Shown here one piece after another: positions 8,845-62,280 of a stretch of DNA of 64,000 nucleotides. The stretch comes from Squalus acanthias. Taxonomy: Eukaryota. Location of the stretch: positions 102,424,001 to 102,488,000 of the forward strand of contig CM059429.1 in NCBI GenBank assembly GCA_030390025.1, written 5' to 3'. The notes beneath the pieces were generated by a model. The model saw only the letters and a list, made by a program, of their open reading frames with translations. It searched no databases and was not told the DNA's origin. Each line of letters starts with the position of its first letter. Position 1 is the stretch's first letter. A program made the translations under genes and the position numbers.

Positions 8845-9283
8845 ATGGTATTTTACTAATAAGCCGGAGCAGTGCAACTAACCTTTAGGCCTTGCACTGT
8901 ATACTTGTATTAGTGTACATCATTCATCTTGTACATTTCAGCAGTGTATACACCCAAAACCTAAAGGAGTTCTTTTGAATGATGTACAATAGCAGCAGCA
9001 GAAGATACATCTGTCACAGGTGGACACAGTCATGATACGGGGAAGACTGTCTGACATCCATGTTATACTTTCTTCCCTATTATCTATTTGCCTCCCAGTG
9101 CCATATGCCATGAGAGAGCAGATAGATGACCTGCATCAGGGTCCCTGCCAGTGTTTGCTTTCAGCGGGGGCACCTCCCAAAGAAAAGGAAGGAAAATAAG
9201 TCTTCCTGGGTTAGTATCATACTCTGTTTAACAGAAAGCTCCACAATGATACAGGCATAGTCCTGGGAACAAGTTGAAAATCT

Positions 9284-10132
9284 GGGCTTAGAAATTGGGG
9301 AACGCTGGAAACCTGCCGATAACATTGGCGGCCAAGGATAACGGCTGCCGGACGAGAGAGCGCAGGCAGTCCCGGCATTTTGGTACTGCCTGCTTATATC
9401 ATCAGCGTGGCAATGATTTGCTAGTGCTAATGTCAGAAGGAGGCCAAAGGTCGCCTCGGTCTCCCACCCACAGTGTAGGGGAGCGGGAAGAAGGAGCGAC
9501 CCGAACAATTGCAGTACATGCTCCAAAAATATTAGCTGCCACCTGATGTTTAGCGATTTTTTTTGTTTGTTTATGTCATGAATGCAGATAAAAGAGATTT
9601 TATCACAGATCATTTTCAATCGTTGCAATGGAGTTCACCCATTGATTTACTGACCCACAAACACAGTCGGCCTCCCGGAAAGCTGCCATAAAATGCAACC
9701 CCCCCCCCACCACCACCCTCTACTGATGAGCAAAAAATGAAAGTTTAAAGGAAGAACCTTGGCGAAGGAGGCGTTTGAAGTTCCGGCCTCCATACTCACA
9801 AGTCCTGCCAGACTCCTCATGGCCGTTAATGCCGCTGAAAGACCTGCTAGCGGCAGCAAATATTGGCGTGATTTAGCATGGCCGTCAATCCGAGCGGACA
9901 ACTCCAAAATGGATGAGCTGGCGTCAACTCGGCGTTGCACGCCAATTGACGTCATGCTCCACCTCATTAAAAATACTCTCGCCATTCTCAGTTGATGGCA
10001 GCGCTGCCGACCTGCCGAAAATGGCGGCCGTCGCGGTACTCGCCTCCGGCTGGCAGAAGAGCGCCGGCCGCTGGTTTTTTCGCCATTTCATGGTGCTAAC
10101 GGGTGGCACAAACCACCTGAATTTTTAGGCCC
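9284..10132. mobile_element. MITE (Harbinger-type)
   Basis: Imperfect TIR GGGCTTAGAAATT / AATTTTTAGGCCC, GC-rich subterminal arms and AT-rich centre. Confidence 0.65.
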
Positions 10133-37984: not shown

Positions 37985-38092
37985 CTCCAGCATTACAACA
38001 GTGACTACACTTCAAAAGCACTTCATTGGCTGTAAAGCACTTTGAGACGTCCTGAGGTTGAGAAGGCGCTATATAAATGCAAGTCTTTCTTT
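37985..38092 (+). mobile_element. Deu-SINE 3' end
   Basis: CATTACAACAGTGACTACACTTCAAAAG..GGCGCTATATAAATGCAAGTCTTTC. Confidence 0.8.
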
Positions 38093-42023: not shown

Positions 42024-42991
42024 CATTAAGATAAAAAAATAAAGAATTGCAACAATTTTTTCAAGTGATGTTGGAAGTGTGAATGGAGGTGTAGTGGATA
42101 TGGAACAATTATTAAAGATAACTGTAGAAAAGGAATTGGTTCTGAAAACATTAGCAGAACTCAGGGTGGATAACTCACGAGGCTCTGATGGCAGGTATCC
42201 TAGATCGTTGACAGAAGTCAGAGGAGAGATAGAAGAGGCTCTGGCCACAATTTTTCAACGCTCCTTAAATATGTAAATTGTGGCATTGGCCAGGAGAATA
42301 ACTAATGTACAGCTTTGTTCAAGAAGGGAGAAAAGAATAAACCAGATAACTATAGAACAGTTAGTCTAATGTCAGATATGAGCAAACCCTTAGAACCATA
42401 ATTCATGATAAAATTATCAACATTTAGAAATGCATGGGGTAATCAAAGAAAGCCTGTTAAAGGGAAGTCATGTTTTACAAAATTAATAGAGGAGTGATAG
42501 GGGAGAAATTCAGTTGCTTAGCGCCTCCTGTTAGTGCTGGCAGGGGCACTAATGGGGTGCTAATGAAGTAGCACCAGGGCGAGGCGAATCCAGCGCCGCA
42601 CGCCAAATCCAGTCACCCCTTAGCGCCGCCGCTAACAGTTAGCGCCTGTACCTTTAGCACCAGGCAGATCGTGACGTCAGTGAGCGTGCAACGCTCACTG
42701 GGCGCCCAATCTGCCAAATTGATTATCGCCCCCTGCCTTAGTGTCTCGCCCCGATAACGACAGGAAGAGGAGGCGTGAAGCAGGCAGATGGCGGTTCCAG
42801 GGGCGATATTTAAAGGGATGAGTCGCAGCTGTCAGGTTAGTGCTGTTTCACTGCTTCCTTGTCAGTTTGCGATTGTGCAAGAGTTTAATTCACTCCTTTA
42901 AAGGTTCTTTAGTATCAGGAGTGTCGTGGCTACTAAAAATTTGTTACATTTATTCTGACAAAATTTCAAAGTGCTACACATCGTTACATTA

Positions 42992-44121
42992 ATGGGGGCT
43001 GTACTGGCAGTCGACCTCACCCTCCAGGATCTACTGCGGAGGGAGCAGAGAAAGATTGCAAGATGTGGCCAGAGGGAGGAGGAGGGCCATCAGGGCTCTC
43101 AACAGGAGGCCTTACCCTCCAAGATTCCGAGACCACTTCTCCTACCTCCAATTAAGTGAGGAGCAGTGCATTAGAAGGCTCTGCTTCACCAAGGAGGTGG
43201 TCACAGAACTCTGCCACCTCCTGCAACCAGACCTCTAGCCTCAGATTAGGTCGACCATGGCTCTCTCAGTGGCAGTCAAGGTCAAGATCCTCCCAGTCTG
43301 CAACAGGAGACATAGCTAACATCTCGCAGTTTGCCATCCATCGCTGCATCCGGGAGGTCAAAGTGGCTCTGTACAGTAGGAGAAGGGACTACATTTCCTT
43401 CCCAGAGAGAAGCAGGACGAACGTGCATGTGGCTTTGCCAGGATAGCGGGATTCCCCATTGACTGCACCTACATGGCTTTGCAGGCACTGCATAACAATC
43501 CTGAGGTCTTCCGTAACCACAAAGGCTACCATTCACTTAATGTGCAGTTGGCGTGCAACCACACACAGCGAATCCTCAATGTCAATGCCTGCTATCCTGG
43601 CAGCAGCCACAATGCTTTTATCCTGCCAGACTGGTGTGCCAGCACTCTTCCAGCCACCACATCAAGCTCGCGGCTGGCTGTTCGGAGACAAGGGCTATCC
43701 GCTCTCCACCTGGCTCATGACTCCCCTCCGCAACCCCAAAACTCCTGCTCAGCACTCATACGAGAGCCATGCTGCCACCAGGAACATCATCGAGCAGACC
43801 TTTGGGGTGCTCAAGCAACGGTTCCACTGCCTTGACCGCTCAAGAGGAGCCCTCCAGTACTCGGCTGAGTGGGTGTCCCATTTCATGGTGGTCTGCTGCA
43901 TGCTCCATAATTTGGCCATCATGAGGGACCAGCCCTTACCACCAGGGATTGCGGGACCACCTCAGGAGGAGGAAGAGGGAGCGGAGGAGGAGGACAAGGA
44001 CAAGGAGGAAGAGGAAGACGAGGAGAAAGAGGAGGAACAGGAGCGAGGGAGGAGGCAGCCACCCAATCGGCCTTCTGGAAGAGCGGTCCGTGACCACCTC
44101 AACAGACTGAGGTTCCAATAA
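42992..44121 (+). pseudogene. Harbinger DDE transposase (HARBI1-like), frameshifted
   Basis: [90 protein letters not shown] across frames. Confidence 0.9.
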
Positions 44122-44289
44122 ATTAACCCCAGATCCCTGATGCTCACCACATCCCCATCATTCCATCCCTGTCACAGGCCATATCACAGCACACAGCTGA
44201 AATGAGAGACACCACAAAGTCATCCAAAGCCAATTAATAAATTTATCAATAATCAGTGAACACATATTTACAACAACAATATTAACTAT

Positions 44290-46188
44290 TCACCCTTGTG
44301 CAATTCCTTAGTGCCCCTTGTTACTGTGCCTTTGCCTACTCTAGTCCTCCTACAAAGTGTTGGCCCAGTGGCTGCAGCAAGGCTGGTGGAAGGCTGCCGA
44401 GTGTCTGTGCGGGAGACTTCAGATGGCCTTGCAGGACGCCCTCGACCAGCTCTGGACCTGGAAGCCCTGGCTGTAGACTTCACCACCTCAGCATGGGCGG
44501 CAGCAGTCTGGCTGGCTGGATGACAGGCAGTGACAAGTGCAAAGGCGGAGTGCCAGCGGTGGGAGTAGGAATGCTGTCATCCTGAGAGAGGACAACAGGT
44601 TCCTGCTCCACTGACCCACTGCCACTCCCCTGGGGCAGCACCTCAGCATCACTACCAATCTACTGGAGCACAGATTGCTGGCCTGCTGCAACACCGCAAA
44701 AGCCCCGGTAGACAGTGGTCGACCCAGCCACGATGGCAGCAGTCAAAGCTTGCGTGGCATCAAGCTGAGACTGCATGAGAGCGTCTGAGAAGCGATGGCA
44801 CCAAGCATAGACTGCATTACAGCACTAAGACGTTGCGTGGCTTCCACGTGTGCTGCAATGGAAGCTGCCAGATCGCCCATCCCACGCAGCACGAGGACTG
44901 GGTTTCCACGATCTCCTTGGGAGTCCACCATCCTTTGCAGACTGCAAATAATGGGCTCCATGGTGTGCGCAGAGCTCTGTGCAATGTTGGAGGCGGACTC
45001 CTCCACGCTCCTTACCATTGCCTGAGAGGCTCTCGGGCACCCTTGCCATTGCACCTATCATCTCCGAGTGCATGCCCATCACCCTTCTTCTAAAGGCCTC
45101 CCCATCGGGGTCCTCATCTGAGTCCTGTGCAGCAGAACTCGCACGCGAATTTGTCCCTCCAGGAGCTGGCCCCCGAGCTACCCTTTCCCCCCGGCCTTGC
45201 TGCAGCCCGCTCGTCCCCGGTGCCTCACCCTGTGCAGACCCCGCTACTATACCAGCCTCTAAAGAACACGGAGTACCAGTATCTGAGCTGGTGCCTGCGG
45301 GTGAGAGATGCAGTGACGCGGTGTGTTCTTCCTCCTCCTCTTCTCCTGCCTTGATCTCTACGGTGCCCTCAGGGACAGACTGCTCAGGTGCTTGCTCATT
45401 ATCTGAAAGCATAAAGGCACAAGAGTCGGGTTAAGGTGAGGGGAGGGGGGCAGGAAGGGAGAAATGTATGCATACAGCATGATTAGCTGGAAAGTGGGAA
45501 AGGCTTGTGGGGTGAGGGGGAAGTGGGATGTGAGAAGAAGGAGTAGGATGAACATACTGTTGTTGTCCCCAAGGGGGTCAATGTCGCCGGTGGCCATGGC
45601 GTCCACCACCTGGCTCCCAATGATTTGCAGCACTTTTTCCTCCAGCTCAGGCAGTGGTTGGGTGTCAGGTTGTCCCCCACCTCTGCGTTCCTGCTCTCTC
45701 CTGCTGTGAGCCACCTTGGCCTGTAAGAGAGGAAAGTGTGTGAGTGAGTGTGGAGCAATGTGTTTGGGTGATGTGCCTGCCATAGTTGAATAGCTGTCAT
45801 TGTGTGCAAGGTGTGAGATGTGGGTGTGAGTGTTAGTAGGTGGAGATTGTTGGTGGGTGAGTGCCGGGTGTGTGGTGCTTTGGACAGTGTGTGCAGACTG
45901 TGGTTCAGATGGTGGTATGTAGCATTTGTTGAAGCATTGACTCACCCTGACCACCCGAGTGAGGTTGTTAAATTTCTTCCTGCACTGTGTGTGGGTCCTG
46001 GGGACCACAGTGCTGCCCGAGACATGCTGGGCTACCTCCCTCCACATGGCATGGAAGACTTGCGGCGAGGGCCTCCTGCCACTTGCTGGGCACAGCACCG
46101 CCCGCCGTCTCTCCACAGCGAAGACCAACACCTCCCATGCTTGATCACAGAATCTGCGAGCTCTCTCCCTGGGCCGTTGATCTGCCAT
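44290..46188 (-). pseudogene. Harbinger Myb/SANT DNA-binding ORF, three exons
   Basis: Exon1 46188-45946 (RERARRFCDQAWEVLV..WREVA..RTHTQCRKKFNNL, donor gtgagt), exon2 45720-45558 (ttacag / gtatgt), exon3 from 45402 (tttcag); reading frame is continuous across both junctions; later frameshifts. Confidence 0.85.
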
Positions 46189-47829
46189 AATGACACCTCC
46201 TTCAGTGGTCCGGTTCTCCTTGGCCTTCTGATGCTTGCTGAGACAGCTGCAGAACCAGCAATGCTGAGAATGAGGTTCTGCAGCATGATTGAACCTCCCC
46301 TTAAAGAACTGGAAAAAGCCTGTGGCAATGATGACTTGCGATTAGACTACACCTGAAATTGCTTAGTGTTTGAGTGTGACGTCATGAGCTAGGCCGTTAG
46401 CGTTTGATTTAGCGCTCCCATCCTTTCTTTGAGCGATGACCCTGAATTTTGCTCGCAGCGAGATTCATTAGCGCCTGGCGCTAAATCTCAAACTTTTCCA
46501 AAGTTAGCGCCCACTCCTGGGCTATAATGAATTTCTCCCCCATAGACTTTAACCACAATGAGCAGTGCTGTCCCTTTGCTAGATATGTGAAGGCCAGGCT
46601 CCAGTAGAAGGTACAACTTGGTGAGAGCCTCCTGCAGAAGCATAGACATTGAAGGCAGGTCGCTTCAGACCAGTGGCAGAGCTAGCTTCGGCCGACTGGG
46701 GGGTATCTAACTCGAGATTTGGCCGGCTTGACAGTAAGGGGACCAAGTTGGGAACTGGAGAATGCCAACTTAGCTAGTCTGAAACTGCACAGACTTGCAG
46801 GCCGAACCTGGAGGTCAAAGACACAGGTTCCTGGAAGCAAAATGGAGGCGGTCCGCCAAAGCTGTGTTGGCCGAGCTCGAAATTAATTGGGGGGGGGTCA
46901 TGACCCCACTGGCTCTGCCGCTGCTTCGAACATGTCCAAGTAGGTGTACTTCTGTTGGAATATATAATTCCTGGGCTGCCTGCAGGTGGGCGAACACCTG
47001 CCTTTTCTCTGCCCAAAGGAATTTGTCTTCCTGTACCAAATCCAGGACAGCCACTGGCAGGCGCAGTGGAATGCCTGCCTATGCTGATCACTGTGCTTGC
47101 TGCTATGGGGGACAAATGGTAGCACCAAATATGCTGATGTTGGATGCGTGCACTGAAAAAGAGTTGAACTGAAGAAAAACAGCAAGCAGCAGAAAAAAAA
47201 CACACCAGATACAATACACAAAGTTTAGTTGGCCAAGTCATAAACAGCAATCAAAATGCACCTCTCAAAAATGTTGCAACCTAGCTTTAAGTGGCGGATC
47301 GAACATCTAGGAGGCATCCCCGTGTTCATTTTATACAGGTGCTCAGGGATCGAGCAGCTGCACTGCAGTAGACTATGGGTGATCATTGAAGGACCAATTC
47401 AAATAATTCTGTCAGATTTAATGAGGCCAGCGAAAGCAGATAGCGCTGCCTCAAAGATTTCATAAACTTCTCCTGTGAAATCAGGAGTTCAGCTCTGCAA
47501 GCCTTGTATACTGCCAGTAAAGTGTTACTCCTCGACTGTGACATTGGGGAATTGGCCCTCCCAGCTCTCATTTGAGAAATCAATCTGCAAGGATTGCATT
47601 TTACTTGAACAATGAACAGCTAGTTTTGTAGCAGATATATATAAAGACATGATCATGGCCCACTGTGGTGTCTGGACAGCATTGTCTCTATTAGCACTAA
47701 GTTGATTAGATTATGATGTTGCTTAATGACCTGGTGATAAATGTTAATTGTTCATAGCACTTTATGATTGTTTTTCCAGACACACATGTCTGATAATCAA
47801 CAGTACTGGCTTAATAAAAAGGAAAAATT

Positions 47830-51731: not shown

Positions 51732-52270
51732 AGTCAGTGGCTCAGTTGGTAGCCTCTGAGCCAGAGGATTGTGGGTTCAAATCCCACTCCAGAGACAAAA
51801 ATCTAGTCTTTCGGATGAGATGTTAAACTGAAGCCCCATCTGCTCTGGACGGGGCCTACAGTGGACGTAAAAGATCCCATGGCACAACTTTGAAGAGCAA
51901 GGGAGTTCTCCCCGGTGTCCTGGCCAATATTTAGCCCTCAATAAACATAAGAACAGATTATCTGGTCATTATCACATTTCTGTTTGTGGGAACTTGCTGA
52001 GCGCAAATTGGCTGCCCCCTTCCCCCACATTACAACAGTGACTACTACTTTCCGCGACCGGTGGGCGCCGCGGGGACTGGAGTGCATCATCACCCCGGGC
52101 TACCAAATTTTAATTTAATTTGTTAAGGTTTATTTAAAGTTTTATTGATTTACAGTTCATCTGGTTTAGTGTCCACACAAAAGAGTACAACAGTGACTAC
52201 ACTTCAAAAAGTACTTCATTTGGGACGTCCGGTGGTCGTGAAAGGCGCTGTATAAATGCTAAGATCTTTC
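51732..52270 (+). mobile_element. Deu-domain SINE carrying a nested Tx1-like insert
   Basis: A box GTGGCTCAGTTGG, B box GGTTCAAATCC, Deu body, tail GAAAGGCGCTGTATAAATG. Confidence 0.88.
52046..52185 (+). mobile_element. Tx1-like LINE 3' end with 15-bp TSD
   Basis: Encodes FRDRWAPRGLECIITPGYQILI* then a T-rich UTR ending CACAAAAGAG; TACAACAGTGACTAC at 52031-52045 and 52186-52200. Clade assignment by motif recall. Confidence 0.75.
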
Positions 52271-52349
52271 TCATCTCAGTCTTGTGTGATTGCAGACAAG
52301 TCACTGGCTCGAAACAGCAGTGTGTTTGGGGTGGGGAAAGAGGGAAGCT

Positions 52350-52512
52350 GGCTGACGGTCACATGACTTCCGGGTTCCTGGCGTGACTGTCAGCTGAGGG
52401 GGCGTCACGTGTTTGAGCGGCCACTCCTCCCCCCCTCCTCTCTCACGCGCACTGACGTAACTTCCGGCGTTGGAGCCGCCGGTTGTCGGGCTGCAGTGAG
52501 CGAGCGGTAAGT
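52350..52512 (+). promoter_or_regulatory. CpG-rich housekeeping-type promoter and non-coding first exon
   Basis: GTCACATGAC (52358) overlapping ACTTCCGG, GTCACGTG (52404), TGACGTAACTTCCGG (52453-52467), consensus donor GCG|gtaagt at 52506/52507; CpG-rich unique sequence to about 52700. Confidence 0.8.
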
Positions 52513-53832
52513 GTGCGGACGGCTTGGCTGCGTCGTGTGTGTGTGGGGAGAGCAGTGAGGGGCACTCATTGAACTTTGTGGCGTCTCTGCCCTGAAGTCG
52601 CCGTCTGTCTCGGTTGCGCATTTGTTATCAACACAGCAGTCTGGTTTTTTTTTGTAACGGCCTCGTTACTTCGAGCGGCCGCCTCGCCCTGTGTTGACAA
52701 CACAACAGCAGCAGCAGGGAGTGTGTGTGGGAGTGGGAGTAGGACTGGGTCCCGGGCAGCCGGTACAAACTTGGCCAGCACTGTCACACAGGCAGTGCAC
52801 TGAGGGCCATCTGGGGCTGCTGGTGTCCACACCACACCTCCGTGTGTTTCAGTGGCGCACCTTATGTAAAAACGGGTCACCTGAAGGCAGGCAGGCAGCT
52901 CCCCCCCCCCCCCCCCCCCTGAGCTTCAAGCACTTGGGGCAATGTCCGTGCAGTTAAAATGCAGCGTTAAATTCGCAATCTGGGCAGGGATTTTTCACTT
53001 GAGTCACTGTTTGCGATTGGTGTAGGTCTGCTGCAATTGCATTCCTCTCCCGGGCTGTAAATTAATATCATCACCAGCAATCATTAATGCCGGTACAACA
53101 CAAGTGCAGCAAAAGGCAACGTACTGCAGGCGCTGGACACACTCCGCAAGTTGGGCAACGTCGGTGGAGAAAGAAAAAAGCGTTGATGTTTCAGGAGTAA
53201 CACTTCGTCAGAACCTCTTGTGATTGCCAATCTTCAAAATCCTTTAGACTGAAATACTGAAAAGCAAAAAGAGGGTAAAGCGAGAAAATTAGACTTCATT
53301 CATTAATGGTGTTGCCCAATTCATTTTTTTGACTCGTGATTATTTAGATCTGTATTTACTGTAACTCATCACCTGAATGCAGTGTACAAAGTATTAGTTG
53401 CCACATCTGGCTGCCAGAGTCTGCTTTCAGGAATTCTTAGTTTTTTTTAGCATTTGGCTGTGTGAGAAGGGCAAATTGCATTGGTCTCTACAGGATACTG
53501 TTTAGTGCTCAAAATGATCAAGATTGAAGCAGATCATAGTGTTGCAGAGCACCACATGCCATCAAAGCAGTTATGCATTCAAATTGGCTCACAAACCTAC
53601 TTTAGTGAAAGGTGTGATCAAATGAGCAATCAAATGCTTTGGAGGCTGGGGAGACAAGGAAGGCAACAGTAGCTTGCATTTTATGTAGTGGCTTTCACAG
53701 AGAAAAATGTCCTTAAGCACTTGAGAGGTGTAATCAGACAAAAATGGATGCTGAGCCAAAGGAGGAGATATTAGTTGGGGTAAGCAAAAACTTGGTCCCG
53801 GGTGGATTTTAAGGAGGGGATGCGGAAGGGTT

Positions 53833-61834: not shown

Positions 61835-62280
61835 TTAAAAGACTTGCATTTCTATAGCGCCTCTCAATCTCGACATCCCAAAGCACTTTACAGCCAATGA
61901 AGTACTTGGTGTAGTCACTGTTGTAATGTCGGAAACACAGCAGTCAATTTGCATACAGCAAGGTCCTACAAACAGCAAAGTGATAATGACCAGATAATCT
62001 GTTTGTGATGTTAGTTGAGGGATAAATATTGGCCAGGACACCAGGGAGAACTCCCCTGCTTTTCTTCGAAATAGTGCCATGGCATCTTTTACATCTACCT
62101 GAGAGAGCAGACGGAGCCTCAGTTTAACGTCTCATCTGAAAGACAGCACCTCCGATAGTGCAGCACTCCCTCAGTACCGCACTGTGTTGGCCTTGATTTT
62201 TGTGCTCAAGTCCAGACTCGAACCTATAACCTTCTGACTCATAGGCAAAAGTGCTAGCAACTGAGTGAGCCATGGCTGAT
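61835..62280 (-). mobile_element. Full-length Deu-domain SINE
   Basis: tRNA head on minus (CAGCCATGGCTCA..GGTTCGAGTC), Deu body, L2-like tail. Confidence 0.88.

Follow-up and report, generated by a model that had tools for sequence, protein, structure and literature searches.

The insertion in the window

The locus raises the question of whether a LINE family of Squalus acanthias uses an abundant SINE as its dedicated landing site, as a preliminary description of the window (the whole stretch of 64,000 nucleotides that was analysed) had proposed. The proposal came from a 140-bp insert in the 3' half of a SINE, located between two exact copies of the 15-mer TACAACAGTGACTAC (Table 1). The insert and its perfect 15-bp target-site duplication (TSD) were both confirmed. 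Judging by its anatomy, we take the host SINE to be a putative Deu-SINE/SacSINE1 element. As described, the 15-mer is uninterrupted in two other SINE copies of the window, the second of which starts at 61911 rather than 61910, and with up to two mismatches allowed it has 6 matches in the window compared to 0.15 expected. A DeuSINE/SacSINE1 family has been described in sharks (PMC5499810).

The frame starting at 52050 encodes FRDRWAPRGLECIITPGYQILI followed by a stop, in agreement with the preliminary reading, and this peptide matches the ORF2 C-terminus of a copy that is nearly full-length. A poly-A is absent, as had been noted, and the terminal AAAAGAG recurs across the LINE family. The assignment of all 140 bp to the end of a LINE needs a small correction: the first three nucleotides are not element sequence, and 29 other fetched loci align from query base 4 or later, so that the LINE-derived part is 137 bp.

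About 150 bp past the SINE is a GC-rich, promoter-like stretch (52340-52520) that contains ACTTCCGG twice as well as CACGTG, with a possible short first exon and a splice donor near 52505.

Table 1. Positions of the features discussed, in window coordinates or as sampled loci
Feature	Location	Strand	Basis or remark
Host SINE (tRNA-like head, body, tail), bounds approximate	51737..52270	+	sequence and alignment to other SINE copies
TSD, 5' copy, 15 bp, begins with the nick motif TACA	52031..52045	+	sequence
Three additional nucleotides at the 5' junction	52046..52048	+	foreign to the element; other copies align from base 4 or later
Tx1-clade LINE 3' end, 5'-truncated	52049..52185	+	97% identical to the end of the 7.1-kb copy L120
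Final 22 ORF2 codons and stop	52050-52118	+	a T-rich 3' UTR then follows to AAAAGAG
TSD, 3' copy	52186..52200	+	sequence
Uninterrupted SINE site in a SINE fragment	37994..38008	+	sequence match
Uninterrupted SINE site in a further SINE copy	61911..61925	-	sequence match
Harbinger of the main target family, complete-looking, 4.0 kb, terminal inverted repeats	42500..46541	-	83% identical over 3.8 kb to the Harbinger at L125
Site B insertions	L030, L046, L050, L054, L060, L066, L080, L081, L090		9 of 98 sampled ends

Identity and size of the LINE family

A search of the 3.7-Gb genome with the 140-bp query yielded 1,435 first-look candidates, of which 40 were scored. A 12-mer that joins the element end to TACAC occurs 1,849 times in the genome and its reversed control 481 times, from which we estimate about 1,400 family copies. 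Extension of the long copies produced a 7.1-kb element (L120) with a zinc knuckle in ORF1, an APE-RT ORF2 and FRDRWAPRGLECIITPGYQILI as its final peptide. Pfam domains identified in this copy and in L175 were zf-CCHC in ORF1 and Exo_endo_phos, RVT_1 and zf-RVT.

The ORF2 of L175, read as a frame of 1273 amino acids, is 50% identical over 1262 amino acids to the ORF2 of Xenopus Tx1L (YTX2_XENLA), rising to 54% for residues 1-800, while the match to the human L1 endonuclease is weaker (E 1e-20). Tx1L was the closest named element in pairwise protein comparison. The family includes 5'-truncated copies with TSDs and a fixed 3' end, as expected of a Tx1-clade element. These sequence comparisons identify the insert as the 3' terminus of a Tx1-clade LINE, and the membership suggested by the preliminary description holds.

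Target sites of the family

To sample insertions independently of their flanks, we selected loci by an exact internal 29-mer (114 matches, the first 100 of them listed). Removal of 13 loci that duplicated the same place left 101 loci with the 29-mer, 98 of which had a junction that could be resolved by script. TACA directly follows the element in 94 of the 98 sampled ends and TACAC in 85. TSDs were detected in 79 ends, 56 of which show an exact run of 13-16 bp; they open with the same TACA as the 3' flank, indicating that the motif belongs to the target. The idea that TACAC is solely the element's own terminus was discarded, since TACAC also begins the 5' duplicate. The nick profile of 38 non-redundant dispersed sites read T (27/38) before the nick and T (38), A (36), C (38), A (38) and C (36) after it, with little signal outside T|TACAC, where the bar marks the nick.

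Classification of the 98 flanks gave 36 in a first Harbinger target (site A; 32 by script and 4 tandem cases assigned via the upstream flank), 9 in a second (site B), 1 in the SINE, which was the index copy of the window, and 52 elsewhere. At least 4 of the 36 site A ends (L011, L021, L028, L086) represent 3' transductions that lie elsewhere, leaving about 30-32 of the 98 on target. A family has been called target-specific when more than 20% of its flanks lie in one repeat (Kojima, PMC4494074). The Harbinger site exceeds this level with 36 of 98 flanks, as well as with the 30-32 that remain without transductions, whereas the SINE stays below it both among the sampled ends (1/98) and among the relatives of SINE-inserted copies described below (1/58).

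To estimate what the short motif alone would give, we built a weight matrix from the 38 dispersed sites against a 141-kb background. Under this motif-only model, the 900 site A sequences hold 0.17% of the genome weight, compared to about a third of the insertions observed. The preference for Harbinger thus far exceeds what the short motif gives. It is a preference without strict specificity, as 52 of the 98 copies are at dispersed TACAC sites.

Four more repeats were struck two or three times each at one TACAC position (L014/L085/L106, L045/L077/L097, L016/L053 and L072/L075/L252). We also rejected the possibility that target class follows subfamily: on a tree of 135 nucleotides, with few columns and weak resolution, the number of target-class changes was 31 for site A compared to 30.3 after shuffling, and 9 compared to 8.8 for site B.

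The SINE as a landing site

Tabulation of the 3' flanks, the check put forward with the SINE proposal, showed no enrichment for the SINE 15-mer (1/98), and TACA in 94 of the 98. The SINE is therefore not the dedicated target that the preliminary description had in mind, the index copy being the only sampled end inside it. Genome-wide, exact SINE junctions numbered 4 filled and 57,030 empty (0.007%). All four are genuine, arose independently, share one target base and have duplications, and a fifth insertion at the identical base was found at L243. The SINE site reads CAT|TACAA, a near match to the nick motif.

These five insertions at exactly one base, together with the clustering of two older SINE-inserted copies in the 3'-end tree (98/91), speak for a family or subfamily with the SINE as a dedicated target. 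Against it stand the ratio of filled to empty sites, the absence of the SINE from the 97 sampled ends other than the index copy, the position of the index copy among Harbinger-inserted and dispersed copies in the 3'-end tree, and the motif-only model, in which the SINE sites hold 0.2% of the genome weight and about 3 of 1,400 insertions would be expected there, compared to the 5 found. A search with the 3' ends of the two older SINE-inserted copies, in which 7 of 60 ends were unresolved by script, assigned a SINE position to only 1 of 58 non-self loci, and on this result we rejected a SINE-specific subfamily. We consider dedicated use of the SINE extremely improbable, and SINE targeting is rejected on these observations. 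The insertion in the window was likely an off-target event on a near match of T|TACAC. The lead was a false one, reflecting a few motif-level events out of over 57,000 sites. The broader idea of a sequence-directed habit aimed at transposons proved sound, with Harbinger sites rather than the SINE as its object.

Structure of the Harbinger targets

Site A is located about 165 bp inside an element of 4.0-4.3 kb that bears short terminal inverted repeats. A Myb/SANT gene (Myb_DNA-bind_5, E 1.5e-5) begins about 195 bp downstream of the site, and a DDE_Tnp_4 transposase (E 2e-26) is encoded on the opposite strand. Terminal repeats of 12-13 bp with TAT flanks are present in the element at L125 and in the Harbinger of the window, while the ends of the element at L126 do not match. 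Target A is, judged from its domains and ends, a PIF/Harbinger DNA transposon. The homologue of the landing site in the window Harbinger, at about 46378, is diverged and empty.

Site B, as read by eye, is located just 3' of the apparent end of the transposase gene in a second Harbinger family. The two sites are non-homologous and have little in common beyond GCRT|TACAC. Exact junctions were filled in 89 and empty in 816 cases at site A (about 10%), where the empty pattern also catches regenerated 5' sites and the filled pattern takes in tandem and transduced copies, and filled in 15 and empty in 200 cases at site B (about 7%). Occupancy is thus about equal, with the reservation that the exact filled and empty patterns for the SINE, A and B differ in length.

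The long duplication of full-length copies

Truncated copies have a duplication of about 14 bp, whereas full-length copies on target have one of about 141 bp. In seven long on-target copies, the duplicated segment runs from the landing site up to and including a short leader motif. For positions +15..+95, the 5' duplicate was most similar to the 3' copy of its own locus in 6 of the 7 cases (identities of 0.96-1.0 for those six), whereas its average against 18 further Harbinger copies was 0.79-0.90. For positions +95..+140, the copy of the same locus was strictly best in one case, tied in two and beaten in four. The upstream part was thus copied from the local target, while the RNA may have supplied the last 45 bp.

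The 141-bp segment contains presumed promoter motifs, namely a CCAAT box at +18, CTTAAAG as a TATA-like sequence near +72 and an initiator-like element near +105. The duplicated segment is likely the promoter of the Harbinger Myb gene, a reading of promoter and start site that draws on these motifs and on three 5' ends. The three belong to off-target full-length loci that lack Harbinger positions 0..+100 and start in Harbinger-derived sequence at +100 (L120), +103 (L172) and +110 (one tandem locus), about 25-35 bp after the TATA-like motif. No recognisable duplication was found for L120, in a search of 12 kb downstream, or for L172, while the tandem locus is inserted at a foreign site and has a short TACAC duplication. 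L172 is a rearranged copy that lacks a simple duplication and lies amid fragments of another Tx1 copy. In the flank of L120, LTR-element-like sequence interrupts the downstream Harbinger (oriented positions 9105-10000). Another full-length copy, L169, is rearranged with an internal repeat of about 2.8 kb.

We fetched 30 of 40 matches to intact 5' ends with a query that contained Harbinger +100..+141, which biases the sample toward copies with that part. In 26 of these the element was preceded by the Harbinger segment from the landing site onward, 11 times after the Harbinger left arm and 15 times after another LINE copy plus the segment. Of the remaining four, one starts at +19, two (from one tandem locus) start at +110 and one belongs to the sister line described below. 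The 5' end of the LINE proper is similar to the Harbinger leader. An initial search with the 5' UTR yielded almost only the sister line, and a search by junction pattern gave six matches, four of which were plain Harbingers. Contigs from four runs presumed to be RNA span the stretch; as such contigs do not mark a transcript start, they were left out of the evidence.

Head-to-tail arrays were observed with a period of about 7.1-7.3 kb and up to 7 units. Truncated copies occupy the regenerated site ahead of full-length ones at L121, L037 and L082. Short arrays of truncated 3' ends spaced by the duplication were seen at L024/L025 (213-bp period), L008 (about 450 bp), L029 and L178, and these may have arisen by repeated insertion at the regenerated site or by local expansion.

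A sister line with a different target

A sister Tx1 line (L140-L168 and L193-L196), 90-96% identical and forming a separate branch in the tree, inserts at GCAC|AACAC in a different abundant repeat. This repeat is putatively Penelope-like; an Rfam search of the target flanks gave no match. The sister line has target-derived 5' segments of 15 bp or about 60 bp and forms 7.15-kb tandem arrays. Within ORF2 residues 1-245, a single position distinguishes the two lines, with Q in all 8 readable copies of the Harbinger line and R in all 4 of the sister line.

Proposed mechanism and alternatives

We consider it probable that this Tx1 LINE lands most often about 165 bp inside one family of Harbinger transposons, that its full-length copies duplicate the likely promoter of the target, and that the SINE copy is off-target. 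By analogy to the Tx1L model, the APE endonuclease would nick the bottom strand at T|TACAC and prime reverse transcription. Read-through RNA, for which the four 3' transductions provide evidence, would carry TACAC and downstream Harbinger sequence and could pair with the primer, fixing the 3' end without a poly-A. The LINE RNA would start near +100 in the leader of the Harbinger Myb gene, driven by the Harbinger promoter; the cDNA end would then anneal to the target at +100..+141, with a second cut near +141. The new copy would inherit the promoter and an intact landing site in front of it, and the renewal of both ahead of each copy would build the observed head-to-tail arrays.

A stronger version, in which the RNA guides both ends, with a leader of about 40 nt that pairs 100-141 bp past the nick and read-through sequence that helps to pick the first nick, is put forward tentatively as somewhat less than an even prospect. 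Two points count against the proposed mechanism as a whole: pairing of read-through RNA with site A sequence does not account for the use of a non-homologous site in Harbinger B, and of the three full-length loci that lie off target, two have no clear duplication.

It is also conceivable, if unlikely, that specificity derives solely from an endonuclease that recognises a longer DNA site, or from open promoter chromatin, that the LINE promoter is internal and that the 141-bp duplication is a by-product that plays no part in transcription. In vitro, the Tx1L endonuclease can nick its target with no RNA present (PMC1950540). A single endonuclease position separates the Harbinger line from the Penelope-type sister, and Harbinger B is preferred too; all this would fit such a reading. 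It accounts less well for the off-target full-length starts downstream of the TATA-like motif, for the upstream segment kept at 26 of 30 intact 5' ends, and for sites A and B, which have little in common besides GCRT|TACAC. That the repeat of about 141 bp is instead an inherited 5' head carried in the RNA, or the product of later recombination between Harbingers, we regard as very improbable. The similarity of the LINE 5' end to the Harbinger leader points that way, and some arrays may grow by unequal crossing-over, since six units of the C19 array share alignment values. However, the +15..+95 segment is 96-100% identical to its own 3' copy, the best match in 6 of 7 cases, compared to a mean of 79-90% to the 18 Harbingers, and positions 0..+100 are absent from the off-target full-length copies.

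Comparison with known systems

Targeting of Harbinger by Tx1 is already known. Among Tx1 elements that target DNA transposons are Tx1L in Tx1D, Tx1-Mar in Mariner-N4 and Tx1-9_AMi (PMC4494074, PMC6719617). The last of these, from the American alligator, inserts preferentially near the 5' end of Harbinger, about 300 bp inside (Kojima 2015, PMC4494074). Compared by description only, the shark LINE is likewise a Tx1-clade element with a preference for the Harbinger 5' end; it differs in its site at about 165 bp. The description consulted for the alligator element mentions no motif, long duplication, array or second site, whereas the shark LINE has all four.

Tx1L of Xenopus laevis has the same two-ORF APE-RT layout and inserts into a DNA transposon, and its ORF2 is the one matched at 50% over 1262 amino acids. 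Its target Tx1D is of the piggyBac type (PMC4494074), and its specificity is described as stringent (PMC1950540 and PMC6719617), whereas the shark LINE uses Harbinger and a relaxed T|TACAC. The endonuclease hairpin loop is three residues shorter in the shark LINE than in Tx1L.

The exceptionally long duplication at a fixed multicopy target is reminiscent of R9 in bdelloid rotifers, where it reportedly spans 126 bp. R9 is, however, an R2-group element with a restriction-like endonuclease that inserts into rDNA, while the shark LINE is an APE element, the duplication of which is long only at full length and about 14 bp if truncated. The long target-site duplications of R9 are named in a title cited in PMC12203849. 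R2 elements are co-transcribed from the 28S rDNA, as cited in PMC4494074, and the same paper suggests transcription from the flanking target for SINEU in Mariner-N4. As in R2, transcription of the shark LINE would depend on the target, and the presence of target sequence in a transcript can add to specificity. Unlike in R2, the promoter-like segment is downstream of the nick and must be duplicated to precede the element.

A literature search, which extended to sources other than subscription papers and Repbase Reports, found no SINE-targeting Tx1, no family like that of the shark and no length-dependent Tx1 duplication. Within that scope, the switch between duplications of 14 bp and 141 bp may be unpublished.

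Implications

How the 5' junctions and second-strand cuts of LINEs form is poorly resolved. Here, one element at the same site has two outcomes, a duplication of about 14 bp when truncated and about 141 bp at full length, which makes homology-guided cleavage of the second strand testable. Should the RNA guide both ends, a lineage could change its target with an almost unchanged endonuclease, as the Penelope-type sister line did. The proposed scheme offers a concrete route by which a transposon-targeting Tx1 element gets a promoter, and full-length copies would gain an on-switch of their own along with a new landing site.
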